A DNA stretch of 64,000 nt, from positions 1-64,000 of the IMG/VR virus record IMGVR_UViG_3300035208_005974; one strand, given 5' to 3'. Source of the DNA: a virus. Taxonomy: Duplodnaviria > Caudoviricetes. The notes below the pieces were generated by a model, which saw only the letters and a list, made by a program, of their open reading frames with translations, did no database searches and was not told the origin of the DNA. How positions within the stretch are numbered: the first letter of the stretch is position 1; every line of letters starts with the position of its first letter. The position numbers were made by a program, and so were the translations under genes. Below, one piece after another: positions 34,673 to 51,509 of the stretch.

Positions 34673-37239
34673 AACTACAAGTATTTGACATAAATTATAT
34701 AAGCGACACTGAAAGAAATCCAATTATTCAATTATTTTGCATAGATGAATTTGGAATGAGTAAAGTAATTAGAGTTTATGGTTTTAGACCATATTTTTAT
34801 GCAACATCATCAAACATTGAAAAAACAAAAGAAGACTTATCAAAAGTTAATTTAGAGTTTGAAGACGTTAGTTTTTTCAAACCCATTGGATATCAATCAG
34901 AACCAACAAAAATGCTTAAAATATATACAATATCCCCGCGAGATGTTCGAGAAACAAGGGAAATTATACGATCATATCCTAACGTGACTAACATCTATGA
35001 AGCAGATATTTTATTTCATGAACGATTTGCAGCAGATACAGGAATACAAAGTTTTAAGTGGATAGAAGTTAATTCAGATGATGTATATTATAAAAACATT
35101 GAAGTAATACAAAATATTGAAGATGTACCATTGCGTATATTATCCTTGGATATAGAATGCATGATACCTGAAGATGGTACAATACCTAAGCCTGAAAAAG
35201 ATTCTATAACTTTGGTTAGTTTAGCATTCAATACAAATTACAATAATGTAGATAATATTGTACTTATTGCAAAAAAAATTGATTGTACTAGAAATGATAC
35301 AATTTCTTGTGAAAATGAAAAAGATTTACTGAACAAATTAATAAAAATAATAAAAAATTATGATCCAGACATAATAACTGGTTATAATATTGGACCATTT
35401 GATCTAAATTATATTGACGTTAGATCAAAAGTAAACAATATAAGATTTAATATTGGTCGAGATAATAGTTTATTATATATAAAACAATTTGGGTTAGAAA
35501 AAGAAGCTATTGTACCAGGTAGAGTTATTATCGATACATTACCAATGGTTCGAAGAAATTATAGCCTAAAGCAATATACTTTAAAAAACGTAGCCAACGA
35601 ATTGTTACATTTACAAAAGCTAGATGTTCCTGCTAAAAAAATGCGAGAATACTGGTTATCAAATGGAGAAGAATTCATAAAATTTATAAAATATTCTCGC
35701 AGGGACGCAGTTCTTGGATTATCATTATTACAAGACCTTGGAATGCTTCAAAAATATATAGCTTTATCAAAAGTTACTGGAGTACTATTACAAACAGTTG
35801 TTAATAGTGGGCAAACATCAATATTAGAATTCATGATCTTACAGCGATTTAATGCAAAAAATCGTGTTGTAAATATGAAACCACATATTGAAGGCAATAA
35901 AGAAGATCGAGAATCAGAATTTCAAGGTGCTTATGTTTCAAAACCCAAGAAATCGTTGTGTGAAAACATAATATTAACTGATATGCAAAGTCTATATCCA
36001 TCCATTATTATTAGATATAATTTATGTCCTACGACTGTAATAAAGGATGAAGAACACAACGATATTATAACAAGCCCAGACGGAACAAGATTCATTACTT
36101 CAGTTCGTGGAATATTACCTGAAATGCTCGATGAATTACTAAAGAAGCGTTTGGAAACAAAAGCTAAAATGAAAATCACAAAAGATAAACACGAATATGA
36201 TATATTAGATAGTATTCAATATAGTTATAAAATATTGCTTAATTCAGCATACGGCTTATGTGGATATCCTAGATCAAGAACATTTGCTATGTCAGTTGCT
36301 AGTTCTGTTACAGCATATGGACGTGAAACAATTAAAAAAGTTAGGAATGATATTGAAAACATTAAAGACCTTGAAATAAATAATAAAAAATTTAATTTTG
36401 AAGTAATATATACTGATACCGATTCAGCTTATATTGAATTAATTTGTTCCGATAATATAACATATAATGATGCAAACGTAGTTGGAAATGAAGTTACTCA
36501 AATGGTTTCCAAACCAATGTCTTATCCAATGAAACTTAATTATGAAGGATATGCTTCTAGGGCTTTATTTTTAACCAAAAAACGTTATGCAATGAATATG
36601 ATAACCCAAAAAGAAGGAAAAATAAACCAAACCATAAAAGTAAAAGGTATAGAAGTTGTGAGAAGAGATTGGTGTCAATTAATTGGAGAAACATTAACAA
36701 AAGTTCTTGAATTGATATTACAAGACGGAGATCCATATAAAGCATGGCAATATGCAAATAGTATCATAGAACGTTTATTATCATTACGAGATATTCGTGA
36801 TGATGTAGAATTTGCTGATAAATTGATATTGAGTCGAAAAATAGGAAATTTGTCAGGATATAAAAATATTCAGCCCCATACAACAGTTTATAAGAAAATT
36901 GTTGCACGTGGCGAAGAGCCGCCTGGCTTGGGAGACCGTATCCAGTACTATGCCTTACCAGGAGCTTCTTCTGCAAATTATGGTGGCATAAGTCAATGCG
37001 TCGATACACCAGAATTTGTAAGGAATACAGACGGTCGTATAGACAACAATTGGTATGTCACCCATCAAATTATACCACCACTAGAACGCATATTTGAATG
37101 TATCGGTATTTCAATCCAGACCGGTAAAAAACTAGAAAAAGAATCAAGTTTATTTGAATTTTCCGAAACAGACGATCAGAAACCAAAAACCGTATTAACC
37201 CCAAAACAGACCAAAACTGGATTGTTTGCATTCACTTGA
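34669..37239 (+). CDS. polB: Family B DNA polymerase with proofreading exonuclease
   Basis: DIEC, GYNIGPFD, YSRRDA, DMQSLYPSII, KILLNSAYG, YTDTDS, KKRY and VRRDW; no intein seen. Confidence 0.97.
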   Translation: MKLQVFDINYISDTERNPIIQLFCIDEFGMSKVIRVYGFRPYFYATSSNIEKTKEDLSKVNLEFEDVSFFKPIGYQSEPTKMLKIYTISPRDVRETREIIRSYPNVTNIYEADILFHERFAADTGIQSFKWIEVNSDDVYYKNIEVIQNIEDVPLRILSLDIECMIPEDGTIPKPEKDSITLVSLAFNTNYNNVDNIVLIAKKIDCTRNDTISCENEKDLLNKLIKIIKNYDPDIITGYNIGPFDLNYIDVRSKVNNIRFNIGRDNSLLYIKQFGLEKEAIVPGRVIIDTLPMVRRNYSLKQYTLKNVANELLHLQKLDVPAKKMREYWLSNGEEFIKFIKYSRRDAVLGLSLLQDLGMLQKYIALSKVTGVLLQTVVNSGQTSILEFMILQRFNAKNRVVNMKPHIEGNKEDRESEFQGAYVSKPKKSLCENIILTDMQSLYPSIIIRYNLCPTTVIKDEEHNDIITSPDGTRFITSVRGILPEMLDELLKKRLETKAKMKITKDKHEYDILDSIQYSYKILLNSAYGLCGYPRSRTFAMSVASSVTAYGRETIKKVRNDIENIKDLEINNKKFNFEVIYTDTDSAYIELICSDNITYNDANVVGNEVTQMVSKPMSYPMKLNYEGYASRALFLTKKRYAMNMITQKEGKINQTIKVKGIEVVRRDWCQLIGETLTKVLELILQDGDPYKAWQYANSIIERLLSLRDIRDDVEFADKLILSRKIGNLSGYKNIQPHTTVYKKIVARGEEPPGLGDRIQYYALPGASSANYGGISQCVDTPEFVRNTDGRIDNNWYVTHQIIPPLERIFECIGISIQTGKKLEKESSLFEFSETDDQKPKTVLTPKQTKTGLFAFT

Positions 37240-37252
37240 ATGAGGACCTTAT

Positions 37253-37480
37253 ATGACTAATTGGATCAATGTTAACAAAGAATTACCGGAATCTAGAACA
37301 CTTGTCTGGATTCACGTAACCTATAATAAATGTTTGTATGATGATGTAACAGAAAGGATTAGCATTGGAACATACCAAGAAGGTTATTGGCATGATTGGC
37401 TAGACGTTCATTTTGCTGACGACTATGATGTAACTCACTGGATGTCGTTAGAATGGCCAGAAAAACCTGAAGGTGCTTAA
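37253..37480 (+). CDS. DUF551 family protein
   Basis: WINVNKELPE ... VTHWMSL..PE. Confidence 0.75.
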   Translation: MTNWINVNKELPESRTLVWIHVTYNKCLYDDVTERISIGTYQEGYWHDWLDVHFADDYDVTHWMSLEWPEKPEGA

Positions 37481-37723
37481 TTTGTCAGAACGAACAGATA
37501 GCCTATTGGTTTGCCGAGCTGACAAAAGCTCTTTAACCGAAATCATGGACACTACTAATGATACAATAGAAAAAATAATAATAAAATATAAATCTGGTCA
37601 TACTATAATCATAAAAACATGAACCAAAAAGTTTAAATACTAAGTAATTTAAAGTAGTTTTATAATATCGCCCTAAGATAAATGTAGCAAATCTATTTTT
37701 TATAAATTTTTTTGGAGAAGCTT

Positions 37724-37984
37724 ATGTCAGAAACTGGAGATCAAATAAGGCAATTTAATAAAATTGCAATTTCGTATCGAACGGATATAAAAACACTAAA
37801 CGACATACTGGATTCCTGGAAGTTGGAAAAGACTTCCGTTGATGACCTCGCAGAACAAATAAAAAGTTCTGTTAAAAATGCTGCAGAAATTTCTATCAAA
37901 GTCAATGAAAACAACCAATATCTTGTGGAATTCACATTCAAGCCAATAATGGTGTCATTGATCATTGACAAACACAATCATTAA
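37724..37984 (+). CDS. Hypothetical protein
   Basis: Promoter motif at 37622; RBS GGAG. Confidence 0.5.
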   Translation: MSETGDQIRQFNKIAISYRTDIKTLNDILDSWKLEKTSVDDLAEQIKSSVKNAAEISIKVNENNQYLVEFTFKPIMVSLIIDKHNH

Positions 37985-38000
37985 ATTGAGGATAAATAAC

Positions 38001-39059
38001 ATGAATAAAAAACTTTCGGAATGGACAATAGAAGAAATGGAAAGTTTGTATATACAATTAGGATCTTTTAGAAAATGTGCCAAAGAATTATGTTGCGATC
38101 CAAAGACATTTAGAAAATATTATTATGGTAAGAAAAATGAAATAAACAATCATGACGCGGATATGCTATGTAATGATATGAATAATACACTAAATAATAT
38201 TCTAAAACCAATTACTAATAATAGCATAACACCAGATTTGGATACTGCTATTCAAACCATTCAAAATGCTGGGTGGTTTGTTACTAAGAAACCGTTACAA
38301 CGCAATTATACGTTTGACTTAGATATTGAACCTACGGAAACCAACATTTATAAAGTTGGAATCGTTTCGGATACACATTTGGGATCTAAGTACCAACAAA
38401 TGGAATCTCTTTGGAAATTCTATGAAAAATGCGCACGCGAAGGTATAACCACCATCTTTCACGCAGGAGATTTATCAGATGGCGTTAATATGTATAACGG
38501 TCAGCAATTCGAAATTTTCCTACATGGCGAACGAGCACAAGCCCAATACATTATAGAAAACTATCCGAAAATTGATGACATAACCACAGAAATGATCGGA
38601 GGAAACCACGACGAAAGTTTCTACAAACGTTATGGTAGTGACATTTGTTATGATGTATCTATTCAACGAACGGACATGAAATACAAGGGATTTTATTTAG
38701 CCAACTTCAACATCGGCAATATAAATATTTGTATACATCATGGAGATGGCGGTGTAGCGTATGCCAGAAGTTATAAACCACAAAAACTAGCATTAAGTAA
38801 AATTGAAAACAAAGATACTCCTACGCCAGACATACTTGCTATAGGTCACTACCACGCAACATGTATATTACCAGACTATGTTGGTATATATACCATTCAA
38901 ATGCCAGCGTTTCAAAGTTCAACGCCTTCATATATGGGTAGAAAAGGTCTGAATCCGGATATTGGTGGTATTATACTTGAATTTGAAGAATCAGAAGGAA
39001 AATTAGTTTCCACAAAAACACAATATGTGAATTATCGTACTGTGGAAAATGATTATTAA
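38001..39059 (+). CDS. HTH + calcineurin-like phosphoesterase (PolD DP1/Mre11-like)
   Basis: N-terminal HTH (GSFRKCAKELCCDPKTF); SDTHLGS, AGDLSDG, GNHD, HHG, GHYH and PAFQ. Confidence 0.8.
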   Translation: MNKKLSEWTIEEMESLYIQLGSFRKCAKELCCDPKTFRKYYYGKKNEINNHDADMLCNDMNNTLNNILKPITNNSITPDLDTAIQTIQNAGWFVTKKPLQRNYTFDLDIEPTETNIYKVGIVSDTHLGSKYQQMESLWKFYEKCAREGITTIFHAGDLSDGVNMYNGQQFEIFLHGERAQAQYIIENYPKIDDITTEMIGGNHDESFYKRYGSDICYDVSIQRTDMKYKGFYLANFNIGNINICIHHGDGGVAYARSYKPQKLALSKIENKDTPTPDILAIGHYHATCILPDYVGIYTIQMPAFQSSTPSYMGRKGLNPDIGGIILEFEESEGKLVSTKTQYVNYRTVENDY

Positions 39060-39093
39060 TTTATTTTTATTTTTACAGTTTTGAGGTGTTTTC

Positions 39094-40032
39094 ATACGAA
39101 AGAGGGAAGTCGTTGACCTTAACACTTACAACAAATTTGACTTGCTTAGGATTTTTTCAAAGCACAAAACGTTCACAGATTCCGCAAAAGCCATTAAAGT
39201 TTCGGCAAAACGCTTCAGTAAATATTGGATAGATATTGGCTTAGAAAAACCAAACAAAACTCTTGCCTGGAAATTAATTCCAGATACACCTTATAACGAA
39301 ATTGCAATCGTTAGTGACCTACATTTCGGAAACATGTGTCAACAAAAAACCATATTAAACAACTTCATAAAGATTTGTAAAGAACGATCCATTGACGTTT
39401 TGTTGTGCGCCGGAGATTTAGTAGATGGCACAATGACATTTCCAGAACATTACAAGGAACGTTTTTTGCATTGCGCTGACAGTTATATAGAATATTGTGA
39501 AGAAAATTACCCAGCGGACTTTAACACAAATGGTATTATAATGGGTAACCACGACAAAAGTCTAACCCTATATGAAAATCCTAGCTATGACTTTTGTAAG
39601 GAATTTTGCAAAGTTCGTAAAGATGTAACTTATCATATTGGCAATGACAACGTTACAAAACCATTTACAATACCAGGCAACATAAAACTAACCATGTATC
39701 ATGGAAGTAACTGCACAAATTCTAGTTTAGGACAACGTCGCGAACCTAAATTACAACAAAAAACAGCAGAACTCCTAAGTTCTAAAAACACTAGCAACAT
39801 CTACATATATGGCCATTGTCATAAAAAGTGTCTAACGAACTTCATGGACAAGTATATTTTGGGGGTTGGCTGTTTTGTGGCAGACACACCATTTCAGGTA
39901 AATCGAGGAACGTTCGGTGACGTATGTGGACTCATTATAAAGTATAATACAGAAAATGGAAATATTGTGGCACTAGAACCAGAATTTTTCACAGCCGAAC
40001 AATTAGGAGGACTAAAAATTAAGGATTTTTGA
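39094..40032 (+). CDS. HTH + calcineurin-like phosphoesterase, paralog (probable ATA start)
   Basis: SDLHFG, AGDLVDG, GNHD, YHG and GHCH; RBS GAGGTG followed by in-frame ATA at 39094. Confidence 0.8.
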   Translation: MRKREVVDLNTYNKFDLLRIFSKHKTFTDSAKAIKVSAKRFSKYWIDIGLEKPNKTLAWKLIPDTPYNEIAIVSDLHFGNMCQQKTILNNFIKICKERSIDVLLCAGDLVDGTMTFPEHYKERFLHCADSYIEYCEENYPADFNTNGIIMGNHDKSLTLYENPSYDFCKEFCKVRKDVTYHIGNDNVTKPFTIPGNIKLTMYHGSNCTNSSLGQRREPKLQQKTAELLSSKNTSNIYIYGHCHKKCLTNFMDKYILGVGCFVADTPFQVNRGTFGDVCGLIIKYNTENGNIVALEPEFFTAEQLGGLKIKDF

Positions 40033-40117
40033 CGTTTCTTTTTTGTGTAATCAAAAAGCTTAAATATCATGAATACGTATTAAACGTATATATGTAATCG
40101 TAAGGAAGTGATTTAAA

Positions 40118-40366
40118 ATGGGAAAAGGAAAAACGCATAGGGTCAGAAAGAAGTCACCTCCTCCAGAAACAGAAAGGTGGTGTATCGCATGCAAAAAAAT
40201 GACCATCTGGAAATACAATAAGTTGGTTGGTCATTCCAGATGTACGGAATGCGGTAGTATATTTTCTGCGCGGACAGAAGTGCCAGAAGAAAGGCTACAG
40301 GAAGTCGCAGAACGTCTAATGCCGTGGTGCAACAACATCAATAATAATAAAAATATTATAGCATGA
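40118..40366 (+). CDS. Small basic zinc-ribbon protein
   Basis: CIAC...CTECG; own promoter near 40050. Confidence 0.6.
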   Translation: MGKGKTHRVRKKSPPPETERWCIACKKMTIWKYNKLVGHSRCTECGSIFSARTEVPEERLQEVAERLMPWCNNINNNKNIIA

Positions 40367-40406
40367 ACAATAAAAAAATATTTTTTTTTGAAAAAAATTA
40401 TTGTTG

Positions 40407-40538
40407 TTAGTGCATGCTATTTTTTATGTGCGGTTCAATAAACGGATACTTTGGTTGAAGCGCTGGTGGTGCATTTGGTATTCCATCCACGATATGGATT
40501 TCAAAATAATCCATTTGGATATTCGTTGTGTTGTACAT
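40407..40538 (-). CDS. 43-aa leaderless peptide (not in ORF track)
   Basis: MYNTTNIQMDYFEIHIVDGIPNAPPALQPKYPFIEPHIKNSMH lies below a minus-strand TATA at about 40563-40577. Confidence 0.4.
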   Translation of the reverse strand: MYNTTNIQMDYFEIHIVDGIPNAPPALQPKYPFIEPHIKNSMH

Positions 40539-40638
40539 CAAATAATAGTAATATAATGCTTGTTTATAAAGCTTTTTGTACGACAAACCAAAAAGTATTT
40601 ATACAAAAACATATAACACGTAAGTGAAGTGAATTTAC

Positions 40639-41007
40639 ATGACAAACAAGGAAAAGACGACCGTGGGTAGCATGATAAGTGTACCGGTAATTTCAATATT
40701 ACTCGGAATTGCAGCAACAGCCATCACGCAAAACATGTATACTGGATTAGCAATATTCATAATATCAATGGTGTATATGTTAACTGATGTAATTGGATTG
40801 ATTCCATTTGTTGGGGTATTTGTACAATATCATGTACTAACCAATTATATAATACCATTCATGACAAGTACTTTCATGGTACCTCAAGAAGTAATGGTGT
40901 TGTTGAGCATTGCTTTCTACTTAAGCATAATATTTGGTGGAATTGTTACTATCTTTACCACCCTGATAACATTAGTAGGTGCCTATGCAATAATAACTAA
41001 TAACTAA
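40639..41007 (+). CDS. Integral membrane protein
   Basis: Several hydrophobic segments; own promoter at about 40586. Confidence 0.65.
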   Translation: MTNKEKTTVGSMISVPVISILLGIAATAITQNMYTGLAIFIISMVYMLTDVIGLIPFVGVFVQYHVLTNYIIPFMTSTFMVPQEVMVLLSIAFYLSIIFGGIVTIFTTLITLVGAYAIITNN

Positions 41008-41044
41008 TAGTAATCACAATTATTTTTTTATTAGGAGTTGTATA

Positions 41045-41518
41045 ATGTTATATTGGGATTTAGATGGCGTTCTTAGGATACTTGGCAGTCATGTACTTGG
41101 TTATGAACCCGAAAATTGGCATGATACTTATAATGGTAAAACAATAATAGAAATCGTCAATGAACATCCGGAATTATGCATGACGTGCCCAGAAAGCGAA
41201 TATCTATCAATTGTAAATAATAAATTACAGGAAATAACAATATTGACCAATCAATTGGATAGTTGGATTCCCTTTACGGAAATTTGGCTACGTCGTCACA
41301 TGAAAATTCCATATGATGTGGTGTATACTAAAAGCAGTGAACACAAATTAAGCTTCCTCAAAAATAGCGATATTCTCGTGGAGGATTTTCCGGGTTTTCA
41401 GAATTACAATAACATTGCATTAATCACAAGGCGCTATAACGAGCACTTAAATGTACCCTGTAGAATATCATCACTAATCGATCTTCGGAGATTAATAGAT
41501 TCCCATGAAACCTCTTGA
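41045..41518 (+). CDS. HAD-superfamily 5'(3')-deoxyribonucleotidase-like protein
   Basis: YWDLDGVL, ILTN, K, ILVED and YN motifs. Confidence 0.75.
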   Translation: MLYWDLDGVLRILGSHVLGYEPENWHDTYNGKTIIEIVNEHPELCMTCPESEYLSIVNNKLQEITILTNQLDSWIPFTEIWLRRHMKIPYDVVYTKSSEHKLSFLKNSDILVEDFPGFQNYNNIALITRRYNEHLNVPCRISSLIDLRRLIDSHETS

Positions 41519-41735
41519 TTTTTTTATGACCATGACAAAAGGCAAAGAAGTCTTTTGTTGCCAAAAAATAAATGACGACGGTAACCTTATTGGAATATCA
41601 GGAACCATAATTACCGGCGACGAAAACTACATAATTGTTCGTGGTAAGGATTCGGTACACCTCATTAGTTTGAAGGACATTATCGAAATCGAACATATAC
41701 CAAGCCTGGAAATTGCTTTTCCTGAAGGAACATAA
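41505..41735 (+). CDS. Small beta-barrel protein, possible Sm/Hfq-like fold
   Basis: MKPLDF..KGKEV...ISGTIITGDENYIIV...HLISLKDIIEIE. Confidence 0.4.
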   Translation: MKPLDFFMTMTKGKEVFCCQKINDDGNLIGISGTIITGDENYIIVRGKDSVHLISLKDIIEIEHIPSLEIAFPEGT

Positions 41736-41891
41736 ATGAATGAACAAAAATTTTTAAAATGCAAAAGATGTGGACGTCGCTTATCTTCCCCAGAAAGTCA
41801 GATGGTAGGATATGGTCCCATTTGTTTCCAGAAGGTCCAGGAAGAAGAAAGTATTCAATGTGATTTATTTGACTTTGAGGTGACTGAATGA
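41736..41891 (+). CDS. DUF6011-like zinc protein with PIP-like tail (51 aa, not in ORF track)
   Basis: CKRCGRRLSSPES..VGYGPIC ... QCDLFDF; coupled to both neighbours. Confidence 0.7.
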   Translation: MNEQKFLKCKRCGRRLSSPESQMVGYGPICFQKVQEEESIQCDLFDFEVTE

Positions 41892-42151
41892 ACGTGGATA
41901 TAAATAAATTATTCAGTGACTTGAAGTCACATCCATTGGAATACATTACATTAGTATTAGCGATTTTGGGTGCAACTTTTGCTTCTGATTTAGATGCAGG
42001 AATAAGAGGTTTAGGATTCTTCTTGTGGATTTTTTCAAATGGTTATATGTTGATTGGATTTTTAAAATTAAAAAATATTCCATATTCCCTGCTTTTCCTT
42101 GGTTATGAAATAATGAATGTCCGGGGTATGTTGAATGCATGGTACTGGTGA
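41888..42151 (+). CDS. Small three-helix membrane protein
   Basis: LEYITLVLAILGA, GFFLWIFSN and NVRGMLNAW. Confidence 0.6.
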   Translation: MNVDINKLFSDLKSHPLEYITLVLAILGATFASDLDAGIRGLGFFLWIFSNGYMLIGFLKLKNIPYSLLFLGYEIMNVRGMLNAWYW

Positions 42152-42595: not shown

Positions 42596-43336
42596 ATGTT
42601 AGAAATAGATAAAATATATCAAGGGGATTGTTTAGAATTAATGCCCTTGATTCCTGATAAAACAATTGATATGATTTTATGTGATTTGCCTTATGGTATA
42701 ACTGATTGTAAGTGGGATAATATAATTAATATTGAATTGATGTGGAAAGAATATACTAGAATAATTAAAGATAGAGGTGCAATTGTTTTGACAAGTAGTC
42801 AGCCATTCACGTCAATGCTAGTAATGAGTAATTTGTCATTATTCAAATATGAATGGATATGGAAAAAAACAAAAGCAAGTAATTTTCAATTGGCTAAATA
42901 CAATCCAATGAAAATACATGAAAACGTTCTAGTTTTCTATAAAAAAACACCTATATTTAATCAACAAAATTTAGTTACCGGAAATTTTTATAATAGTAGA
43001 AAAGGCGGTAAACAAATGACACATCTAGCACATTTTAATCCTGAATATGTATCAAAAGGTAAAAATTATAATAAATCTATATTAGAATTTAATTCTGTTC
43101 ATAAACCATTTCATCCGACACAAAAACCAGTAGAATTATTTGAATATTTAATTAAAACATATACTAATGAAAATGATTTAGTTCTTGATAATTGTATTGG
43201 TTCTGGAACAACCGCAATAGCTTGCATAAACACAAATAGGCATTTTATAGGTATTGAAAAAGAACAAAAATATGTGGATATAGCAAATAAAAGAATAAAG
43301 GAAACGCCGATACCATTAGAAAAATTTATAGGATGA
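42596..43336 (+). CDS. Amino-DNA methyltransferase (N6/N4, beta class)
   Basis: GDCLELM, CDLPY, HPTQKPV and VLDNCIGSGTT. Confidence 0.92.
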   Translation: MLEIDKIYQGDCLELMPLIPDKTIDMILCDLPYGITDCKWDNIINIELMWKEYTRIIKDRGAIVLTSSQPFTSMLVMSNLSLFKYEWIWKKTKASNFQLAKYNPMKIHENVLVFYKKTPIFNQQNLVTGNFYNSRKGGKQMTHLAHFNPEYVSKGKNYNKSILEFNSVHKPFHPTQKPVELFEYLIKTYTNENDLVLDNCIGSGTTAIACINTNRHFIGIEKEQKYVDIANKRIKETPIPLEKFIG

Positions 43337-43483: not shown

Positions 43484-44140
43484 ATGCTTGTTAATGATAA
43501 ATCTGCTTATTATAGAAAGCAAACACCCAATGGTCGTTTCTATTTTAAAGATGAAATACCTTATCCGTCTGTAACTACAATTATTGGACACAAAAAGAAT
43601 CCCGGTAAATCAAGGGGACCTGGACCTAGTGCCCACATAGGAACCATTGTCCACAAAAAAATACTTGGTCGTTATTCCAAGAACGTATTACCAGTGTCGT
43701 GTAATCCCATCTGGAATATACCCAGGGAAGAAGTTTATGGCAGAATAAATCGCTGCATAAAAATGTGGAATGACTTGCATTTAAGTATTCAGCCGTTTTT
43801 TGTGGAAACATCGTTGTTTAATAAAAATCCACCGTATGCAGGTACTCTCGATATGCTAGCGAAAATTAGCTGCAATAACGACCTACTTGATATACACTTC
43901 AAAAAGGAATTATTTCTAATGGACCTGAAAACAGGCCTTCAATACTATGATAGCCATGTTGCCCAGGCAGCGGCTTATTGGCAAGCATTAAGAAGAAAAC
44001 CCAAAGTAATGTTTATTTATTTAGATAGCATTATAGACCGGAATCCAGAACAATTACCGGTGGTTAAAATATTCAGCCAAGAAGAACTAGAAAATGGTTA
44101 TGACTTATTTATGGACGACTATATAGATTTTGAATATTAA
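43484..44140 (+). CDS. PD-(D/E)xK exonuclease (Cas4/RecB-like)
   Basis: YPSVTTII, GTIVH, YAGTLD, DLKTG and QAAAY. Confidence 0.85.
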   Translation: MLVNDKSAYYRKQTPNGRFYFKDEIPYPSVTTIIGHKKNPGKSRGPGPSAHIGTIVHKKILGRYSKNVLPVSCNPIWNIPREEVYGRINRCIKMWNDLHLSIQPFFVETSLFNKNPPYAGTLDMLAKISCNNDLLDIHFKKELFLMDLKTGLQYYDSHVAQAAAYWQALRRKPKVMFIYLDSIIDRNPEQLPVVKIFSQEELENGYDLFMDDYIDFEY

Positions 44141-44256: not shown

Positions 44257-44259
44257 GTA

Positions 44260-44387
44260 ATGTCACCTCAATTTCTACTAAGTACATATAGTACTTACTA
44301 TAATATATAACTTACGGTTGAACAACCAACCAAAAACTATTTATTCTCGGAAGTACTATATGTACTTGTTAAAAAGTGAGGTGACAT
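44260..44387. promoter_or_regulatory. Mirror-symmetric divergent promoter with two palindromic operator-like sites
   Basis: aagtacatatagtactt (44280-96) and its exact reverse complement (44351-67); atgtcacctca / tgaggtgacat RBS pair; two back-to-back TATA boxes between them. Confidence 0.75.
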
Positions 44388-44699
44388 AAGTTGGAAAGAG
44401 TTTGGGCACAATATGGCCGGAAATCTAGAATTCCTGCTCATATCAAAGAAGAGTTACGACTCGCTGGATTCAAGATTAGGTCCAGAAGGACGTGGCTTAA
44501 CAGAACCCAGATTAGTGAAGGTTGCGAACACATAACAATCAGAGGTGATTAAACATGGTACTCGGAAATAGAAAAGACATAATAGAATTGGATGAGCTGT
44601 CAGACGACTGCTTGAAAGCCAATTTCGGCTATACTAATGCTGGAATTGAGAATCTGAGAGACCAAGCGAATGAGGTTAGAAAAGAAGAGGCGATCTGAA

Positions 44700-45263
44700 A
44701 TGGAAACCTTTGAGGCATTCGCAGCAAAACGGGAATTTAACCCTCCATCACATAGCACCGAGATGCTCATGCTGGCCATCATGCGGTGTTTCCACCGCAA
44801 AGAAGAGATCCCGGAAAAGGCGCTTACTCGCCTCTGCACTCCGGAAGCATGGCAGAGGTTGAGGGCATGTGAGTTCATATCCTCATCCAACGGGATATGC
44901 ACTATCACGGGGGAGGGGCGCCAGGCACTAATCCGAATGGAACGGACGGAGATGCATCTGGCATCGCTAAATGCACTCCGTCACCGGGACAGGGAGTTGT
45001 ACGAAAAATACAGAAACAGCTTAATGTCGAGGAGGTGGCCTGGGATGATCGCTGATATCCGTGTCGTCCGTGATTGCGGGCAATACGCGGAAGGACCGAG
45101 TGGCCTCTCAGTGAGGGTGTGGGACTATGGCGAAGAAATAAATGAAATCTTCGTTTATGATCAAGAGGTACCAGTCTTCTTGGCGGAGATATACCATGCT
45201 CTGACCACGGAGCAACGAGCATCTCTGAATCAGATCATCGACGCGGAGGAGGTCGCTCCCTGA
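44700..45263 (+). CDS. Hypothetical protein, markedly GC-richer than the genome
   Basis: ATG 44700 follows the stop of a short upstream ORF; GC-ending codons; wHTH-like N-terminal half. Confidence 0.6.
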   Translation: METFEAFAAKREFNPPSHSTEMLMLAIMRCFHRKEEIPEKALTRLCTPEAWQRLRACEFISSSNGICTITGEGRQALIRMERTEMHLASLNALRHRDRELYEKYRNSLMSRRWPGMIADIRVVRDCGQYAEGPSGLSVRVWDYGEEINEIFVYDQEVPVFLAEIYHALTTEQRASLNQIIDAEEVAP

Positions 45264-45344
45264 TGCCCACTTGATCCGTCGTTTCCATCCACCTTTTTTA
45301 TGTTAACCAAAAAGTATTTAAACTCCTAAAACTAAACTATAACT

Positions 45345-46022
45345 ATGAAAACAATAATGAACCTAAGCGAAATATTTTATAGCCTACAAGGAGAAGGCCC
45401 TGCTGTAGGAAGGCCAGCTATATTCGTTCGACTCTCAAAATGTAATAGATCCTGCAAGGGATGCGATTCTCCACAGAAAGATAGGGTCGAAGAAGTTGAA
45501 ACATCTTCTGTGATAAGTCGTATCCAAAACTACCTGAAAACTTATCCGAACAGCCGAATAATTTTTACTGGCGGCGAGCCGTTGCTACAACCCACTGCCA
45601 TTTCTGAAATCATGAACGGTTTACCCGGTCAACTATTCGACATCGAAACCAACGGTACCATAAACAACCAGGAAGAACTATTTAAACGCTTCAATATTAT
45701 GGTTATTAGTCCCAAGAAGGATTGTTTTACTTCCTCCAAGGACCGCAATGAGTTTATAACCAATTGGTTAAAAATTTCGGATAGTGGCCGCAAAAACATT
45801 TACTTTAAGTTTGTTGTTGGTAATTTACCGTGGGCCTTCTTGGAAGCTGAAATCAAGGACATGTTTGAGAACACGGATCTAAATCCTTCTAGGACCTGGT
45901 TAATGCCTGCTGGCGATAACAACCAGAAATTATCAATATCCGGCAAGAATACCTGGAAGGTAGCATGTCGTCTTGGATGCAATTATTCCGACCGTCTCCA
46001 CATCAGATGTAATGGAAAATAA
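45345..46022 (+). CDS. queE: 7-carboxy-7-deazaguanine synthase (radical SAM)
   Basis: EIFYSLQGEG, CNRSCKGCD, TGGEPLLQ, ETNGT, ISPK and SDRLH. Confidence 0.9.
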   Translation: MKTIMNLSEIFYSLQGEGPAVGRPAIFVRLSKCNRSCKGCDSPQKDRVEEVETSSVISRIQNYLKTYPNSRIIFTGGEPLLQPTAISEIMNGLPGQLFDIETNGTINNQEELFKRFNIMVISPKKDCFTSSKDRNEFITNWLKISDSGRKNIYFKFVVGNLPWAFLEAEIKDMFENTDLNPSRTWLMPAGDNNQKLSISGKNTWKVACRLGCNYSDRLHIRCNGK

Positions 46023-46096
46023 GCAGTGTTACCAAAACCTTTAAATACTATCAACGTTAACTTGTTTTAATAACATTTTTAGAAGGTTGTGATACT

Positions 46097-46801
46097 ATAA
46101 AGACAAGTGCAAAAACTCTAGCAGATTTTATAAAAAAAGTTAGCATAAATGGTGCCATACCCGAAGGCATACTTAAGTTTGGTCCCGAAGGCCTAACCCT
46201 GACCGTAAAAGATATAAGCAATTGCGGTGCAGTAACCGGCCTACTCCGGAAAAACGTTTTCTTGGATTATACACCAATGAACGTGCCAATAGGAAACATT
46301 CCAAGGTTGCTTTCTGTTCTAAATGCAATGTCCGGTAACGTTGAACTATCCATTAAGGAAAATGCATTTTTAATAAATTCCGACGATAATGACGCAAAAA
46401 TTATTATGGTAGACGAAAAATACATTAAATGTGATCTAGAAACTCTACCTACGTTGGCACACGACGGTGGTTTTGAATTTGATAGTAATATTTTTGTAAC
46501 CATCAAAAAGAATACAGCTACCTTGAAGTCAGAAAAAACTGGCATTATTGCAGAAGTCAAGGACAATGTTTTCTATGTTAAGACCGGCGAAAAAGAATCT
46601 GATGAACTAACCACCAAAACAAAAGTTGACTACAAAAACGTTAGAACCAAATATGGCATAACATTCCTGGAGTTTATTTCCGTGATAACTGGCAAAGTAA
46701 TTGTATCCTTTAATGAAGAATATCCGATACTTATTACTAGTACAGAACCTGATTCTACTATTAAGTGGATGGTTTCTCCGTTAGTTACTGAGGAAACCTA
46801 A
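46097..46801 (+). CDS. pcn: PCNA-type DNA sliding clamp (ATA start)
   Basis: Extended frame IKTSAKTLADFIKKVS...LKFGPEGLTLTVKDISN...VFLDY plus C-terminal EEYPILI..IKWMVSPLV; directly upstream of RFC. Confidence 0.75.
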   Translation: MKTSAKTLADFIKKVSINGAIPEGILKFGPEGLTLTVKDISNCGAVTGLLRKNVFLDYTPMNVPIGNIPRLLSVLNAMSGNVELSIKENAFLINSDDNDAKIIMVDEKYIKCDLETLPTLAHDGGFEFDSNIFVTIKKNTATLKSEKTGIIAEVKDNVFYVKTGEKESDELTTKTKVDYKNVRTKYGITFLEFISVITGKVIVSFNEEYPILITSTEPDSTIKWMVSPLVTEET

Positions 46802-46825
46802 ATAAACTTTTTTGGAGGATATTAG

Positions 46826-47692
46826 ATGACATTGTTAGTAGAAAAATATAGACCACAAGATCTGGAAAGTATGGTTGGCTTACACCTTAACTTTGACATA
46901 GATGATGCCATGCCACACCTTTTGCTTTTCGGGCCACCCGGAACCGGAAAAACCACGTTAGCACGAGTCATTGTAAAAAAATTAAATTGTGATTATATAA
47001 TTTTAAATAGTTCAGATGAAAGAGGAATTGATACTATAAGAGAAAAAGTTAAAACTTTTGCATCGACTCGTAGTAAAGATTCTAATATTAAGATTTGTAT
47101 TCTCGATGAGTGCGATGCACTTACCTCATCAGCACAGGATTCTTTGCGAAACCTTATGGAACAGTATTCTAGTAATTGTCGTTTTGTACTTACGTGCAAT
47201 TACGTGAGTCGGGTTATTGATCCATTACAAAGCAGGTGTATTAAAATAGATTTTTCCAACATCAAAAAAGAAGATATTATAAAACGTTTAGAATTTATTT
47301 GTGAACAAGAAAAAATACCTTTTGAACACGCCGCAATAGAAAAAATTGTAGAACATAATAGTTCTGATTTACGTGCATCGATTAACAAAATTCAGGAACT
47401 AAAAGACGGTGTAACATTATCCAAGTTAACTAATGAAACCGTATTTGCTCAAACAATCTTTGATCTTCTAAAAAAGAAAGACTTTGTAAGTGCTCGGCAA
47501 GCCTATTTGGACAAGAATCCCGATGGAGAACAATTCTTACGGGACCTGGAAACTATTATCTTTGCCAGTACAGAATCAAATACCTACAAGAAACTAGCCA
47601 TCCTTGAAATTTGTGAAGCCTACAAACACCTAAAGGATGGTTCCTGGCCACAAATCATAATTGAAGCTATGTTCTACAAGTTAGTGGTGTAA
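46826..47692 (+). CDS. rfcS: Replication factor C small subunit / clamp loader ATPase
   Basis: VEKYRP, GPPGTGKTT, NSSDERGID, LDECD, LQSRC and DLRASIN. Confidence 0.93.
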   Translation: MTLLVEKYRPQDLESMVGLHLNFDIDDAMPHLLLFGPPGTGKTTLARVIVKKLNCDYIILNSSDERGIDTIREKVKTFASTRSKDSNIKICILDECDALTSSAQDSLRNLMEQYSSNCRFVLTCNYVSRVIDPLQSRCIKIDFSNIKKEDIIKRLEFICEQEKIPFEHAAIEKIVEHNSSDLRASINKIQELKDGVTLSKLTNETVFAQTIFDLLKKKDFVSARQAYLDKNPDGEQFLRDLETIIFASTESNTYKKLAILEICEAYKHLKDGSWPQIIIEAMFYKLVV

Positions 47693-47694
47693 AC

Positions 47695-48153
47695 ATGCTT
47701 AACTCCATGAAAGCACTAAAGTCTAATCACCCAGAAAATGTAGATCCAAAACTCATTTATCCATTGGTTCGATGGTGTTCGGGCTCTTTAAAAGACTTAC
47801 TTTGGTGCAACACGGTTAACCAATACCTATTTACTTGTGACCAAAAAATACTAACTGACTTGCTTTATCTTGGTATAAATGACAAGAATGCTTTCATTAA
47901 ATACCCTAAAGCCACAAAAGAAAAAGAATCCAAGGTTTTTGAACTCCAAAAAGACCTAGCAAAACGTTTTTATTTCTGGTCTGAACAAGAATGCCAACGT
48001 AACCTATGCAACTTTGCTTACATAGATTGGAATGAAGTTGCAATTGCTTTAGGTTGTGATACAAAGGAACGAAAGTTACTAGGCTTAACCGAAATTAAGA
48101 TTAAAAAAGAAGTCAAACAACCCAAAAAAGCAAAGACCTTGTTTGAATTTTGA
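47695..48153 (+). CDS. Putative second clamp-loader subunit (T4 gp62-like) with PIP-like tail
   Basis: Position after RFC; FIKYPK motif; C-terminal KTLFEF. Confidence 0.6.
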   Translation: MLNSMKALKSNHPENVDPKLIYPLVRWCSGSLKDLLWCNTVNQYLFTCDQKILTDLLYLGINDKNAFIKYPKATKEKESKVFELQKDLAKRFYFWSEQECQRNLCNFAYIDWNEVAIALGCDTKERKLLGLTEIKIKKEVKQPKKAKTLFEF

Positions 48154-48159
48154 GGTAAA

Positions 48160-49362
48160 ATGAGTTTTTTACATACAATAATAAATGGTGATGCTTTGCT
48201 CGAGCTGCAAAAGCTGCCTTCGGAGTCGGTCGATTGCTGCATCACCAGCCCGCCATACTACGGCCTCCGGGATTACGGTGTAGCCGGTCAGATCGGACTG
48301 GAGGAAAGCCCGGAAGCCTATGTAAGCAAGCTTGTAGAGGTTTTCAGAGAAGTACGAAGAGTACTGAAGAAAGATGGCACGCTTTGGCTTAACCTGGGAG
48401 ATTCGTATTGTGGCGGAAAAGGCCAAAGCAATTATGCCTATCAGGAAAGGCGCACAAGTCCTTCATTCGAAGGTGATCAGCATAATATAACTGGAATGGG
48501 TCAGACCCGGCCAACGGATGGCAAGCATTCCGAAATCAAGCCTAAAGACCTGATTGGCATTCCTTGGATGGTTGCCTTTGCGCTCCGGGCCGATGGGTGG
48601 TATCTCAGGTCAGATATCATCTGGCACAAGCCCAACTGTATGCCAGAATCTGTGACTGATCGTCCAACAAAGGCGCATGAATACATCTTTTTGCTATCGA
48701 AATCTAAAGGATATTATTATGATATGGAGGCGATTAAGGAACCATTGCAAACCAACGCACCGAGGACCACAAAAAACGGTGAAGGAAATGGCGAACTTGC
48801 ACATGGCCATTTCGGGCAATCTAAAAATGGTCGCAATAAGCGCACCATTTGGACCGTCAACACATCACCATACCGCGAGGCACACTTTGCCACATTTCCA
48901 GAAGCATTAATCGAGCCATGCATCCTAGCAGGCACAAGCGAGAAAGGCTATTGCTCGGCCTGTGGTGCGCCTTGGACCAGGCATATTGAGAAATGTGCGA
49001 GTGTGAAGAAGATCAGAAATGAACCTTATGCGATTGCAAGTGGTAAAGGAAAACATGCTCAACTATTCACTAGGAGGTCATCATGTGCACAAACAATCGG
49101 TTGGCGTCCTTCATGTTCCTGCATCCTCGATTGTGCGTGGCCTGGCCCGCTTCCAGGGGTGGTCCTAGATCCATTCTTCGGAGCTGGTACAACAGGAGTT
49201 GTAGCAAAGAAATTAAATCGAAATTTTATTGGAATCGAACTTAACCTCGAATATTTTGCAATGTCCAAAAAACGCATCGCTATGATTTCGAAAAAATTAG
49301 ATAAATACCAAGAAAATAAAGTCAAACAAACCAAAAAATCAAAGACTTTATTTGACTTCTAA
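48160..49362 (+). CDS. Amino-DNA methyltransferase (beta class) with Cys insert and PIP-like tail
   Basis: ITSPPY, IIWHKPN, HFATFPE, CSAC..CSC and VLDPFFGAGTT; ends KTLFDF. Confidence 0.93.
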   Translation: MSFLHTIINGDALLELQKLPSESVDCCITSPPYYGLRDYGVAGQIGLEESPEAYVSKLVEVFREVRRVLKKDGTLWLNLGDSYCGGKGQSNYAYQERRTSPSFEGDQHNITGMGQTRPTDGKHSEIKPKDLIGIPWMVAFALRADGWYLRSDIIWHKPNCMPESVTDRPTKAHEYIFLLSKSKGYYYDMEAIKEPLQTNAPRTTKNGEGNGELAHGHFGQSKNGRNKRTIWTVNTSPYREAHFATFPEALIEPCILAGTSEKGYCSACGAPWTRHIEKCASVKKIRNEPYAIASGKGKHAQLFTRRSSCAQTIGWRPSCSCILDCAWPGPLPGVVLDPFFGAGTTGVVAKKLNRNFIGIELNLEYFAMSKKRIAMISKKLDKYQENKVKQTKKSKTLFDF

Positions 49363-49400
49363 TACATAACTATTTATACCATAACGTTATTTATGCATAT

Positions 49401-49517
49401 ATGCGTATGTGGATGGTAGACCCGAGATTCATGTGCAGAGCCCATATTCTGGGAGAACATCGCGAATGTCACGCCCTAATTGGTACTATATTACAATCAA
49501 TCAATAAAAAATTATAG
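49401..49517 (+). pseudogene. Truncated pyrimidine-dimer DNA glycosylase (DenV / endonuclease V family)
   Basis: MRMWMVDPRFMCRAHILGEHRECHAL matches the family N-terminus; stops after 38 aa. Confidence 0.7.
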
Positions 49518-49554
49518 TGTATTTATTATTTTTAAAAACAATGTTGGTGATACT

Positions 49555-49761
49555 ATGTCGCAAGGTGTAAAAGAACTAGAGCAATATCGTAAGGATTTTC
49601 AACCATTATCACGAAAAGCCGCGATGTTAGCTTTTTGTGCTGACTGTATGAATTTATTCCAAGATGGTAACATTGATTGCGAAAACAAAAGATGCCCACT
49701 GTTTCCATTTAGGCCATATAAAAAGAATAAGTCCAAAAAAGAAATCCATTTGATGGAATAA
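49555..49761 (+). CDS. Small Cys-rich protein (CxxC...CxxxxCPLxPxR)
   Basis: RBS GGTGA; FCADC..DCENKRCPLFPFRP. Confidence 0.6.
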   Translation: MSQGVKELEQYRKDFQPLSRKAAMLAFCADCMNLFQDGNIDCENKRCPLFPFRPYKKNKSKKEIHLME

Positions 49762-49762
49762 C

Positions 49763-50305
49763 ATGAAATACATTAAAATATCAAACAAAAATATGAAACT
49801 TAGATTTCATGGTTGTGATCCAGACTATATTCAAAGCGTATGTCATTCTTCATGTTGCAATAGTTCTAAGTATGGAACTATGATTACGATACATCCATCT
49901 GAAGAATGCAAAATTCGCGAACTTGGTTACGAGGTATCGAATGGATTGCTGGTATGCAAAGATTGTTGTGTATTCAAAAAAGAATTCTTGTGTTCATTGC
50001 ATAATACCGAATATAAGCCGTTTGGATGCATCGTATCACCATTTACTTTGAATAGCAACGATACATTAATTGTTCGAAATAGATACAAATTACTTAAATG
50101 TTATGAAAAATCATCAGGGATACCTGCATATATCGCATTCAAGGCATCGCTAGAATTATTATTTGAACAAGAATATTATAAAACATTATGTGATCATTTA
50201 GATATACGTAATAGTGATATAGTTTTACCAATAAAAAACAAAATTTATCAGATGCTTCACGACAATGATACAATCAAAAAGTTGAGGATACATGGGAAAA
50301 CTTAG
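49763..50305 (+). CDS. Cys-cluster (YkgJ-like) metal-binding protein
   Basis: C..CHSSCC ... CVF..CSLH..KPFGC..SPF. Confidence 0.6.
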   Translation: MKYIKISNKNMKLRFHGCDPDYIQSVCHSSCCNSSKYGTMITIHPSEECKIRELGYEVSNGLLVCKDCCVFKKEFLCSLHNTEYKPFGCIVSPFTLNSNDTLIVRNRYKLLKCYEKSSGIPAYIAFKASLELLFEQEYYKTLCDHLDIRNSDIVLPIKNKIYQMLHDNDTIKKLRIHGKT

Positions 50306-51509
50306 TGAAAAATTTGGATTACCTCCATTTTCTGTTTTTGATGCTAGACAAGGCGTATGGCAAGATAGGAAAAGGTGGTGGATAAGTCTTGGCATACAAA
50401 GTGAACTAGGTAGGGGTGAAAACTGCATGGACATGTCGATCCATGTAGCAGAAGATGGATTAAATTATTATAGAAAACGTCCGGAACTTAAAAATGGATT
50501 GCTCGGGATCTCAGAGCAAGCAAGAAGTCACTATAAAGGTGGCAATCCTCAAAAAAACTGTGCACCAGGTGGTTCATTACGTCCAGCCGCCAACTATAGC
50601 AATCGAGAACGCGGTGATGGAACAGGTAAACCAATCAAACATTACGCTAGGTGCTTTGGTCAAGACCTAATGAAAGGCGAAAACGACAAATTTGGAAATA
50701 GGCTTACATGGGTTGCTGGAAGTAGACCGCTTGATGCGCTGGACGATGTGAGCAGCAAGATTCTTGATGTTCAACCACAATCTGGCACTAGCATATTTGA
50801 TCCCGTTCTATGTGAATTACTATATAAATGGTTTACACCCATCAACGGTACAATTCTTGATCCATTTGCTGGTGGAAGTGTTCGCGGCATTGTAGCAAAC
50901 TATCTAGGATATCATTATACCGGTATTGATTTACGACCGGAACAAATTGCTGCCAATAATATCCAAGCAGATAATATCCTAAAAGACCAAGAAAAACCCA
51001 CTTGGATTATTGGAGATAGTAAAAATATAGACAATCTTATTCCTGAAACAACATTTGAAGGATTTCTGACATGCCCACCTTATTTTAATTTAGAATTATA
51101 TAGTGACGACGAAAACGACATCAGTAATTGTGACACATATGATTCATTTATCGATAACTATAATGAAATAATACAAAAATCAGTTGCAAAACTAAACAAT
51201 AATAGATTTGCTTGCATCGTAGTTGGTGACATTCGCGACAAGGCTGGATTCTACCATGGATTTGTTTGTGATACCATTGATGCTTTTGAAAATGCAGGCA
51301 TGAAACTATACAATGATGCTATACTAGTAACGGCAGTTGGATCGCTTCCGATTCGAGTTGGTCGCCAGTTTGGTTCATATAGGAAGCTTGGGAAAACACA
51401 TCAGAATGTATTAATTTTCTTCAAGGGTAATCCAAAACAAATACCAATTGATTTTGCAATGCCAGAATCTGTAACAAACGAAGAACAAGATTTGTTTTCG
51501 TTCACATGA
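50292..51509 (+). CDS. Amino-DNA methyltransferase (SAM motif before catalytic motif) with PIP-like tail
   Basis: PPFSVFDAR, SIFDPVLCE, LDPFAGGSVRG, TCPPY and KTHQNVLIF; ends EQDLFSFT. Confidence 0.88.
   Translation: MGKLSEKFGLPPFSVFDARQGVWQDRKRWWISLGIQSELGRGENCMDMSIHVAEDGLNYYRKRPELKNGLLGISEQARSHYKGGNPQKNCAPGGSLRPAANYSNRERGDGTGKPIKHYARCFGQDLMKGENDKFGNRLTWVAGSRPLDALDDVSSKILDVQPQSGTSIFDPVLCELLYKWFTPINGTILDPFAGGSVRGIVANYLGYHYTGIDLRPEQIAANNIQADNILKDQEKPTWIIGDSKNIDNLIPETTFEGFLTCPPYFNLELYSDDENDISNCDTYDSFIDNYNEIIQKSVAKLNNNRFACIVVGDIRDKAGFYHGFVCDTIDAFENAGMKLYNDAILVTAVGSLPIRVGRQFGSYRKLGKTHQNVLIFFKGNPKQIPIDFAMPESVTNEEQDLFSFT

Follow-up and report, generated by a model that had tools for sequence, protein, structure and literature searches.

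Putative Clamp-Docking Peptides at the C-Termini of DNA Methyltransferases, Polymerase and Clamp Loader of a Tailed Virus with a PCNA-Like Clamp

The Virus and Its Replication Genes

Several DNA enzymes encoded in a 64,000-nucleotide stretch of viral DNA, referred to here as the window, end in short peptides with the core L-F-x-F. The window makes up the initial 64 kb of a linear virus record of 124.6 kb (IMGVR_UViG_3300035208_005974; Duplodnaviria, Caudoviricetes). The enzymes concerned are a family-B DNA polymerase (PolB), a putative subunit of the clamp loader and two DNA methyltransferases (MTases), and a PCNA-like sliding clamp is encoded in the same window. A first-pass annotation of this DNA had proposed that such tails tether the MTases to the viral clamp, and the tails that it quoted are all present in the sequence at the genes to which it assigned them. 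In addition to PolB and a T4-type clamp-loader ATPase, the window encodes a baseplate J protein, NrdD (the anaerobic ribonucleotide reductase), a D5-type primase-helicase, an RNA ligase, an XPD-like helicase and two TnpB genes, a gene content that marks its source, as judged from the sequence, as a tailed virus of an anoxic habitat. The genes for the polymerase, the clamp, the clamp-loader proteins, the three MTases and the DUF6011 peptide, as well as the promoter element of the clamp gene, all lie on the forward strand. Comparison was made with thirteen loci from related viruses and with one contig from a metagenome.

The polymerase (34669-37239, 856 amino acids; Pfam DNA_pol_B, 6.5e-87) carries the motif twice, as ESSLFEF (LFEF at 37150-37161) and, about 20 residues downstream, as the terminal KTGLFAFT (LFAF at 37222-37233). 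The DNA_pol_B domain stops at residue 812, and both motifs are found on a C-terminal extension. They are kept in four divergent relatives (38-49% identity) in the form [SD]LF[EG][FY] plus GLF[AS]F-x-stop, with a variable basic linker between the two. The PolB gene of locus L020 (4001-6535), a relative with a 100%-identical clamp, shares ~35-45% identity with that of the window over its first ~700 residues, while its last ~105 residues, both LFxF motifs included, are ~98% identical; this places a probable recombination breakpoint within the gene and would make the enzyme a mosaic polymerase in which the clamp-binding end stays with the clamp. At L056/L057 (record G006, 22235-25945), PolB occupies a 1243-residue open frame in which the two halves of the match stand apart, as might be expected if an element, for instance an intein, had been inserted.

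The clamp-loader ATPase (46826-47692, 288 amino acids) is an AAA+ protein of the gp44 or RFC small-subunit type, which matches phrog_168, "clamp loader of DNA polymerase" (4.4e-66), as well as the Pfam AAA, DNA_pol3_delta2 and RFC lid domains. It is followed by a protein of 152 residues (47695-48153) that ends in KKAKTLFEF (LFEF at 48139-48150). This protein had been annotated as the second clamp-loader subunit, an assignment that agrees with its position after the gp44/RFC-like ATPase and finds no counterpart in family searches: profile searches of Pfam, PHROG and PDB gave no match, and the T4 gp62 chains that make up four of its top eight Foldseek matches are not significant (E at least 1.3, TM 0.29). 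It is therefore called here a putative small subunit. In the related loci it is found 3' of the loader gene, except in L004-L006, where no adjoining homologue was found. All nine homologues, down to 51% identity, end in K-[TS]-L-[FL]-[DE]-F-COOH, and between this ending and a conserved body lies a basic linker of variable length and sequence. The tail has a low pLDDT in the predicted structure of the subunit, and it serves as the reference tail for the predicted docking to the clamp in this virus group.

Two of the three MTases share this kind of ending. The first (48160-49362, 400 amino acids; Pfam N6_N4_Mtase, 3.4e-53), hereafter MTase 48160, is an N6/N4 DNA methyltransferase read in frame with a second copy of the clamp-loader tail; it ends in KVKQTKKSKTLFDF, which includes KSKTLFDF (LFDF at 49348-49359). 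The other (50292-51509, 405 amino acids; phrog_498, 3e-77, and phrog_12517, 9e-100) is a fusion of a ParB-N domain and a DNA methyltransferase, hereafter ParB-MTase, which ends in NEEQDLFSFT (LFSF at 51492-51503).

The C-Terminal LFxF Motif

Of the 197 open reading frames (ORFs) called in the 124.6-kb genome, 4 carry LFxF within their final eight residues. When each protein was shuffled 2000 times the mean was 0.28 (Poisson P ~2e-4), so that the motif is found there more often than chance predicts. All four ORFs encode DNA enzymes, namely PolB, the protein whose gene follows that of the clamp-loader ATPase, and two of the genome's three PF01555 methyltransferases.

The tails resemble the PCNA-interacting protein (PIP) box, QxxhxxAA, in an incomplete manner. 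The leucine at position 4 and the phenylalanine at position 7 are invariant, a further phenylalanine stands at position 5, and position 8 is absent or non-aromatic. Most tails have K, T, G or S at position 1, not glutamine; in the ParB-MTase a glutamine is present one residue out of register (EQDLFSF), and sister ParB-MTases do have the PIP-box glutamine (QTGIDAWA, QISLNGFF, QESLFSF). In all cases the motif lies outside the catalytic domain, as the Pfam and PHROG domains stop 10-45 residues before it, and the linkers between them vary in length and sequence. The retention of the motif on diverging linkers across relatives bears the signature of a short linear motif that is apparently under selection.

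The PCNA-Like Clamp

The clamp gene (46097-46801, 234 amino acids, probably with an ATA start) gave no match to Pfam, PCNA_N and PCNA_C included, or to PHROG at E<=0.01. The AlphaFold2 (AF2) model, for which homologues were aligned from the ATA at 46097, has a pLDDT of 92 and a pTM of 0.89, and displays the fold of the PCNA family, with two topologically identical beta-alpha-beta-beta-beta domains and an interdomain loop. Its top Foldseek matches are the PCNAs of A. fulgidus, P. furiosus and T. gammatolerans (TM 0.81-0.82, E ~5e-14, identity 14-20%), followed by many other archaeal and eukaryotic PCNAs (TM 0.78-0.82 at E about 1e-13); identity to solved PCNAs is 11-20%, and gp45 is not among the 40-odd matches listed. 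The earlier designation of this product as PCNA thus agrees with the predicted fold, and lacks both a family match in Pfam or PHROG and a canonical start codon before 46262. Because a gp44/RFC-like ATPase gene adjoins the clamp gene, a homotrimeric ring loaded by an AAA+ loader is likely. The 37 homologues of the clamp all come from viral or metagenomic contigs. A scan of genome contigs with the clamp profile returned a single match, a near-identical viral piece in a metagenome-assembled genome (MAG) labelled Nanoarchaeia, and no provirus or cellular relative.

The start of the clamp gene deserves comment. Its ORF has no ATG, GTG or TTG before 46262, and the initial methionine of the homologues aligns to the ATA at 46097. 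A promoter-like element (CCAAAACCTTTAAATA, 46032-46047) of the archaeal type, one of the ~35 copies described below, lies 5' of the gene, and within the region 46058-46262 a second in-frame ATA occurs at 46070, exactly 22 nt past the TATA-like box. The same arrangement is kept in the near-identical relatives L001, L002, L003 and L010, which makes a non-canonical start codon likely for this gene.

A complex of the clamp with the ParB-MTase tail was predicted from a 26-row alignment of the clamp and a 7-row alignment of MTase residues 376-405. Over three runs the interface score ipSAE was 0.65, 0.64 and 0.02, with a median of 0.64. Among three controls the highest score was 0.02, and the one in which the clamp was replaced gave 0.00. 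The mark applied to this score is reached by 58 of 80 solved complexes and by 2 of 110 mismatched pairs, counts that are only rough since custom alignments were used; the accompanying figures were an agreement between runs of at least 0% of contacts and a partner pLDDT of at least 35. In the best run, MTase residues 395-402 and 404-405 contact clamp residues 38, 41-45, 118, 120, 147-149, 186-189, 209-210 and 225-230. Residues 118 and 120 belong to the long interdomain loop of the clamp model, and 225-230 form its C-terminal strand. We take the contacted residues to be the equivalents of residues 40-47, 126-128 (interdomain connecting loop, IDCL), P234 and 250-254 of human PCNA in its complex with p21. 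Within the clamp family P118 and Y209 are nearly invariant, P210 and P228 are invariant, and the invariant W224 adjoins the site. The prediction thus places the MTase tail in the canonical PIP pocket of the clamp and supports the binding that had been suggested for it.

Capture and Conservation of the Tails on Methyltransferases

The origin of the tail on MTase 48160 can be traced by comparison with close relatives. In L001, a locus without this MTase, the clamp-loader gene ends in, and is followed by, sequence nearly identical to the last ~45 nt of MTase 48160 and the non-coding bases after them, and the clamp-loader gene of the window has its own, slightly different copy of the tail. It follows that the MTase cassette entered the clamp-loader gene at its 3' end, bringing a replacement end for that gene with it. 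The frame of the MTase runs through its complete native C-terminus (...LDKYQEN; ...LDRWAEA in homologues) and then straight into the displaced linker and motif, an ending in LFxF that none of 150 representatives of its family has (0/150). In L002 (3200-3260, compared with 48154-49560 of the window), MTase 48160 has been cleanly deleted between two GGTGAT repeats, with its first 30 nt left behind, so the cassette appears to be gained and lost quickly. The comparison with L001 and L002 both confirms and orients the tail duplication, and the insertion footprint at 48110-49362 can be read as a short linear motif caught moving to a new protein. Taken alone, the tail of MTase 48160 could be a passenger; together with the other cases it looks like the capture of an address tag. 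Among the homologues of this enzyme, P0207 and P0213, presumably of bacteria or phages, end exactly in QLTLF or QLKLF, the consensus motif for binding to the beta clamp, and others end in QLTPLFG or RLPLFR. Clamp-tethered MTases may hence exist in bacteria too, judging from these endings.

The ParB-MTase offers a different kind of evidence. Its ending EEQDLFSFT is kept in close variants (80-100% identity), and in the orthologue P0045 (59% identity) the linker is unrelated and far longer, and yet the ending is KTLFDF. The latter gene lies in L009, a 144-kb contig, directly 3' of a clamp fragment, a clamp-loader pair and a C5 MTase, and KTLFDF is also the ending of the neighbouring small clamp-loader subunit. 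A PIP-like motif occurs in the last 30 residues of 19 of the 120 best homologues; these 19 include the 12 most similar ones and mostly rank among the closest. At least five flavours are represented in them, namely terminal QDLFSFT, KTLFDF and QTGI[DE]AW[AG], the canonical QISLNGFF, and QESLFSF, while within the protein bodies the same patterns have a density of 0.0025 per 30 residues. The first-pass annotation had reasoned that its proposal would suffer if homologous MTases carried the motif regardless of clamp presence. Contrary to this objection, no C-terminal LFxF was found (0/46) at the ParB-MTase homologue loci of other viruses whose examined flanks (up to 10 kb) hold no relative of this clamp. 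As for co-variation of motif flavour between MTase and PolB, in the case of the MTase ending QTGIEAWA, the viral contigs matching P0048 hold only relatives of at most 56% identity, without the motif and without nearby replication genes. In an unrelated tailed virus of 58% GC (L026, 6390-9478), an adjacent pair of ParB-MTase and N6_N4 MTase both end in PATLE[GD]F, and this ParB-MTase also carries QESLFSF 14 residues from its end; PATLE[GD]F would be another PIP-like tail shared between MTases.

Other Possible Clients and Modification Genes

Among the other genes of the window, a zinc-ribbon-like DUF6011 peptide of 51 amino acids (41736-41891; Pfam DUF6011, 3.1e-9) ends in QCDLFDFEVTE, where DLFDF (41865-41876) precedes a brief acidic stretch. 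The small peptides that occupy this position in relatives end in NLFEFGR (L004/L005), DLFDFETEVSN (L007/L008), DLFQYEVKDDT (L011), DLFDFEVTA (L013) and DLFAFETERD (L015); they are equated with the window peptide by position and motif only, as blastp to the window gave no match. The remaining MTase (42596-43336, 246 amino acids; Pfam N6_N4_Mtase, 1.8e-30), also an N6/N4 enzyme, has no clamp tail. The PLEKF near its end (PIPLEKFIG), once regarded as a weaker tail, was rejected as such, for P-x-[PR]-L-x-x-[FW] occurs in several unrelated homologues and represents the ordinary C-terminus of the family.

The segment 3' of the clamp loader is a hot spot of interchangeable modification genes, which in the relatives comprise N6/N4 MTases, C5 MTases and one to three paralogues of the DpdA/TGT-like DNA transglycosylases (L004, 13387-16867; L003, 6642-7814; L010, 8132-9256; L011, 14062-15195; L012, 14781-15929). 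The ends of these transglycosylases, NLFRSW and NLFGWQNL as against NLSAIL and NLNGIK, are too irregular to count as evidence and are no more than a lead. No TGT homologue was found in the entire 124.6 kb of the window virus, and QueE is present (45345-46022). L011 also encodes a 759-residue fusion of an SNF2 helicase and an N6_N4 MTase that ends in SLFDFCDQKL.

Two further proteins of the window have endings that are conserved across relatives: a calcineurin-like phosphoesterase (39142-40032) with the C-terminal peptide GG[IL]xxxD[YF], and a 218-residue protein of unassigned family (43484-44140) with the ending F[LM]DxYx[ED]Fx[YW]. These may be further docking tails of another type. Mobile insertions are abundant, with two full TnpB genes (IS605 OrfB / Cas12f-like; 32424-33611 and 60261-61361) and a NUMOD3-motif protein of the homing-endonuclease type (56878-58014) in the replication region.

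Host and Genomic Setting

In the whole genome, the motif CCAAAA-N(0-3)-T[AT]T[AT][AT]A[AT]A (for instance TATAAATA) is present in ~35 copies, compared with ~1.6 expected. Copies are found, among other positions, at 27958, 45307, 46032, 54253 and 62051 of the window, mostly 22-25 nt 5' of the next start codon or ATG. Such spacing points to archaeal promoters of the BRE/TATA kind whose mRNAs have short leaders or none. Other genes of the virus have ribosome-binding sites of the GGAGGTGA type.

A 13-kb contig carrying the identical clamp has been binned as a Nanoarchaeia MAG, and other near-identical fragments are labelled Paceibacterota or Minisyncoccales. Specifically, L010 (JAQUYS010000025.1), P0004 and P0044 are near-identical pieces of the virus within MAGs labelled Nanoarchaeia, Paceibacterota and Minisyncoccales, and at least some of these placements are binning errors. 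The label of archaeal virus given in the first-pass annotation is thus favoured by the BRE/TATA-like promoters at leaderless spacing and by the Nanoarchaeia-binned contig; with the other labels taken into account, an archaeal host is likely. Should the host prove to be a DPANN archaeon, a virus of 125 kb would be noteworthy.

Known Clamp-Binding Systems

In archaea, C-terminal PIP boxes are known on PolB, RFC-L, Fen1, RNase HII, NucS and NreA (PMC3504372; PMC4929162). The tails described here are like them in being short hydrophobic and aromatic peptides at the extreme C-terminus, placed on a flexible and often basic linker, in having a polymerase and a clamp loader among their clients, and in their predicted site, the pocket between the IDCL and the C-terminus of PCNA. 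They are unlike them in lacking the conserved glutamine and in having aromatics at positions 5 and 7, where the chain usually ends; moreover, the clamp is viral and too divergent for Pfam, and its clients would include DNA methyltransferases. The peptide core of P. furiosus RFC-L, reportedly QATLFDF, is nearly identical to KTLFDF. DNA methyltransferases are not listed as PIP clients in the two reviews on the subject (PMC3504372; PMC4929162), the nearest hint being a putative adenine MTase that co-purifies with NucS in P. abyssi (PMC4929162). C-terminal clamp-binding motifs of viral polymerases have already been surveyed (PMC3201878).

In eukaryotes, both DNMT1 (5mC) and the AMT6 complex of Tetrahymena (6mA) are recruited to PCNA through PIP boxes and methylate DNA right after replication (PMC11761967). 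By analogy, an MTase would here too be brought to PCNA by a PIP-type peptide. Those enzymes differ in serving cellular epigenetic maintenance, in having internal or N-terminal PIP boxes and in their unrelated sequence and domain organisation, whereas the present ones are viral beta-class and ParB-fused MTases of prokaryotic type, with C-terminal tails, a viral clamp and a presumed anti-restriction role.

The gene order of clamp, AAA+ loader (phrog_168) and 152-residue protein is that of genes 45-44-62 of phage T4. In T4 and RB69, one C-terminal hydrophobic epitope is reportedly reused by several clients of gp45, namely the gp43 polymerase, gp33 and gp55, a likeness to the tails of the present virus, in which several putative clients of a viral clamp likewise share a C-terminal hydrophobic peptide. 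Unlike in T4, the fold of this clamp is nearer to archaeal PCNA than to gp45, which is missing from the Foldseek matches listed; to our knowledge, T4 MTases are not clamp clients. The motif of the bacterial beta clamp, QL[SD]LF, belongs to another clamp family and has another register, and it shares the terminal L-F core; the homologues of MTase 48160 that end in QLTLF or QLKLF suggest the same idea. A literature search found no paper on clamp-binding tails of archaeal-virus or phage methyltransferases, in agreement with the first-pass annotation, which knew of no such description for archaeal viruses. The mechanism would be of a known kind, that of a clamp-client motif, with a client class not previously described for prokaryotic viruses.

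A Model and Its Alternatives

We consider it likely that the C-terminal xLFxF peptides are clamp-interaction motifs which dock the two MTases, PolB and the small clamp-loader subunit onto the viral clamp, presumably for the purpose of replication-coupled protective methylation. According to this model, x-L-F-x-F would be a glutamine-less variant of the PIP box, whose leucine and two phenylalanines fill a hydrophobic pocket. Borne on flexible linkers, the tails would bind this pocket of the virus's own PCNA-like clamp, a probable homotrimer, beneath its interdomain connecting loop. PolB and the putative small subunit of the clamp loader would need the motif for their ordinary tasks, and the same address tag would be found on the two accessory DNA MTases and, in relatives, on the SNF2-MTase fusion and possibly on some DpdA-type transglycosylases. 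The tagged enzymes would be concentrated on the clamps loaded on freshly replicated viral DNA, which would be modified immediately; the likeliest benefit is that unmodified sites would not be exposed to host restriction. New MTase cassettes could obtain the tag ready-made, as did MTase 48160, whose cassette entered the clamp-loader gene at its 3' end and whose frame reads into the displaced original tail.

Thus the tethering of MTases to a viral PCNA, as first suggested, gains from the PCNA-like fold of the clamp, the conservation of the motif, its absence from homologues in other viruses and the predicted pocket; it does not extend to MTase 42596. Several points weigh against this model. The tails lack the glutamine of the canonical PIP box and its aromatic residue at position 8. 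One of the three complex runs scored 0.02 and the partner pLDDT is low, and the pass may reflect likeness to solved PCNA-PIP complexes rather than real binding, since PCNA-peptide complexes are abundant among solved structures. The tail of the ParB-MTase is acidic and those of the polymerase and clamp loader are basic, so that their affinities may differ greatly. Neither MTase 42596, one of the three in the window, nor the C5 MTase encoded in L009 carries a tail, so that tethering is not obligatory. MTase 48160 can be dispensed with, for the closest relatives either lack the gene or have deleted it, and its tail is fully explained by an insertion or duplication event; it could be a passenger whose presence alone is no proof of selection. 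Lastly, the closest ParB-MTase homologues outside the virus group have PIP-type motifs on short contigs of uncertain clamp content, and a tether of this sort may therefore not require a virus-encoded PCNA.

The alternatives differ in what they leave of this model. The tails might bind the clamp for a purpose other than protection from restriction, for instance to mark replicated viral DNA for packaging, to serve late transcription as T4 gp45 does or to discriminate self from host before degradation of the host DNA, or the MTases and the DUF6011 peptide might compete with PolB for the clamp and so regulate replication. Clamps are known as hubs of transcription and repair, of which gp45 with gp33 and gp55 in T4, and MuC in phage Mu, are said to be examples. 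With its motif kept in the relatives and no catalytic domain, the 51-residue zinc-ribbon peptide would fit the role of a regulator or adaptor. On the other hand, orphan MTases of phages are most often anti-restriction devices, and swappable modification cassettes 3' of the clamp loader are what an arms race would be expected to leave; another purpose is for these reasons judged unlikely. It is improbable that the tails dock elsewhere, whether on host PCNA or on the viral polymerase, primase-helicase or single-stranded DNA-binding protein (SSB). The acidic, aromatic tails of the ParB-MTase and the DUF6011 peptide do recall those of T7 gp4 and gp2.5, which end in phenylalanine and bind the polymerase, and the outside ParB-MTase homologues that have canonical PIP boxes on short contigs with no viral clamp in evidence make host PCNA a possible partner. 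Nevertheless, the motif is carried by classical clamp clients, twice by the polymerase and invariably by the clamp-loader subunit, and the prediction puts the tail in a PIP pocket that includes conserved clamp residues, a placement lost when the clamp is replaced.

The two remaining alternatives deny the MTase tails any function. That they are by-products of recombination, hitch-hiking copies of neighbouring gene ends, agrees with the ~45 nt and 3' flank that MTase 48160 shares with the displaced end of the clamp-loader gene, and with the renewed loss of this accessory gene in L002. The same fusion, however, joins a complete native C-terminus to exactly the linker and motif, in frame, and the explanation fails for the ParB-MTase, whose motif persists in an orthologue with a different linker and flavour and in sister clades with other PIP flavours, so that we hold it to be decidedly improbable. 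Chance, or a compositional artefact of an AT-rich and Phe-rich genome, could be invoked for so short a motif, and 3 of 544 discarded overlapping ORFs likewise end in LFxF; against the excess among real genes, which concerns DNA enzymes throughout, and against conservation of the motif in relatives at 40-60% identity, this has an almost negligible probability.

Biological Implications

A wider claim can be formulated, in which the clamp tethering of DNA-modifying enzymes is a general rule in archaeal viruses, and perhaps in bacterial ones by way of QLxLF, with MTases and DpdA enzymes as regular clients, a motif flavour matching that of the virus's own polymerase, and acquisition by tail capture, in which an incoming cassette enters a resident client gene at its 3' end and supplies it with a new one. 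We put this forward tentatively and regard it as rather doubtful. Since clamp, tail peptides and MTases are all small and soluble, the narrower idea lends itself directly to tests in vitro.

If the tails do bind the clamp, the modification of viral DNA would be physically coupled to its replication. This would solve a timing problem of viruses with modified DNA, the nascent strands of which are unprotected until they are modified. It would also extend the "tool belt" of archaeal PCNA to anti-restriction enzymes, and would provide a prokaryotic-virus counterpart to maintenance methylation of the DNMT1 and AMT6 type. In addition, it would supply a simple sequence rule, a terminal peptide the same as that of the virus's polymerase, by which orphan enzymes that act at the replication fork could be predicted.

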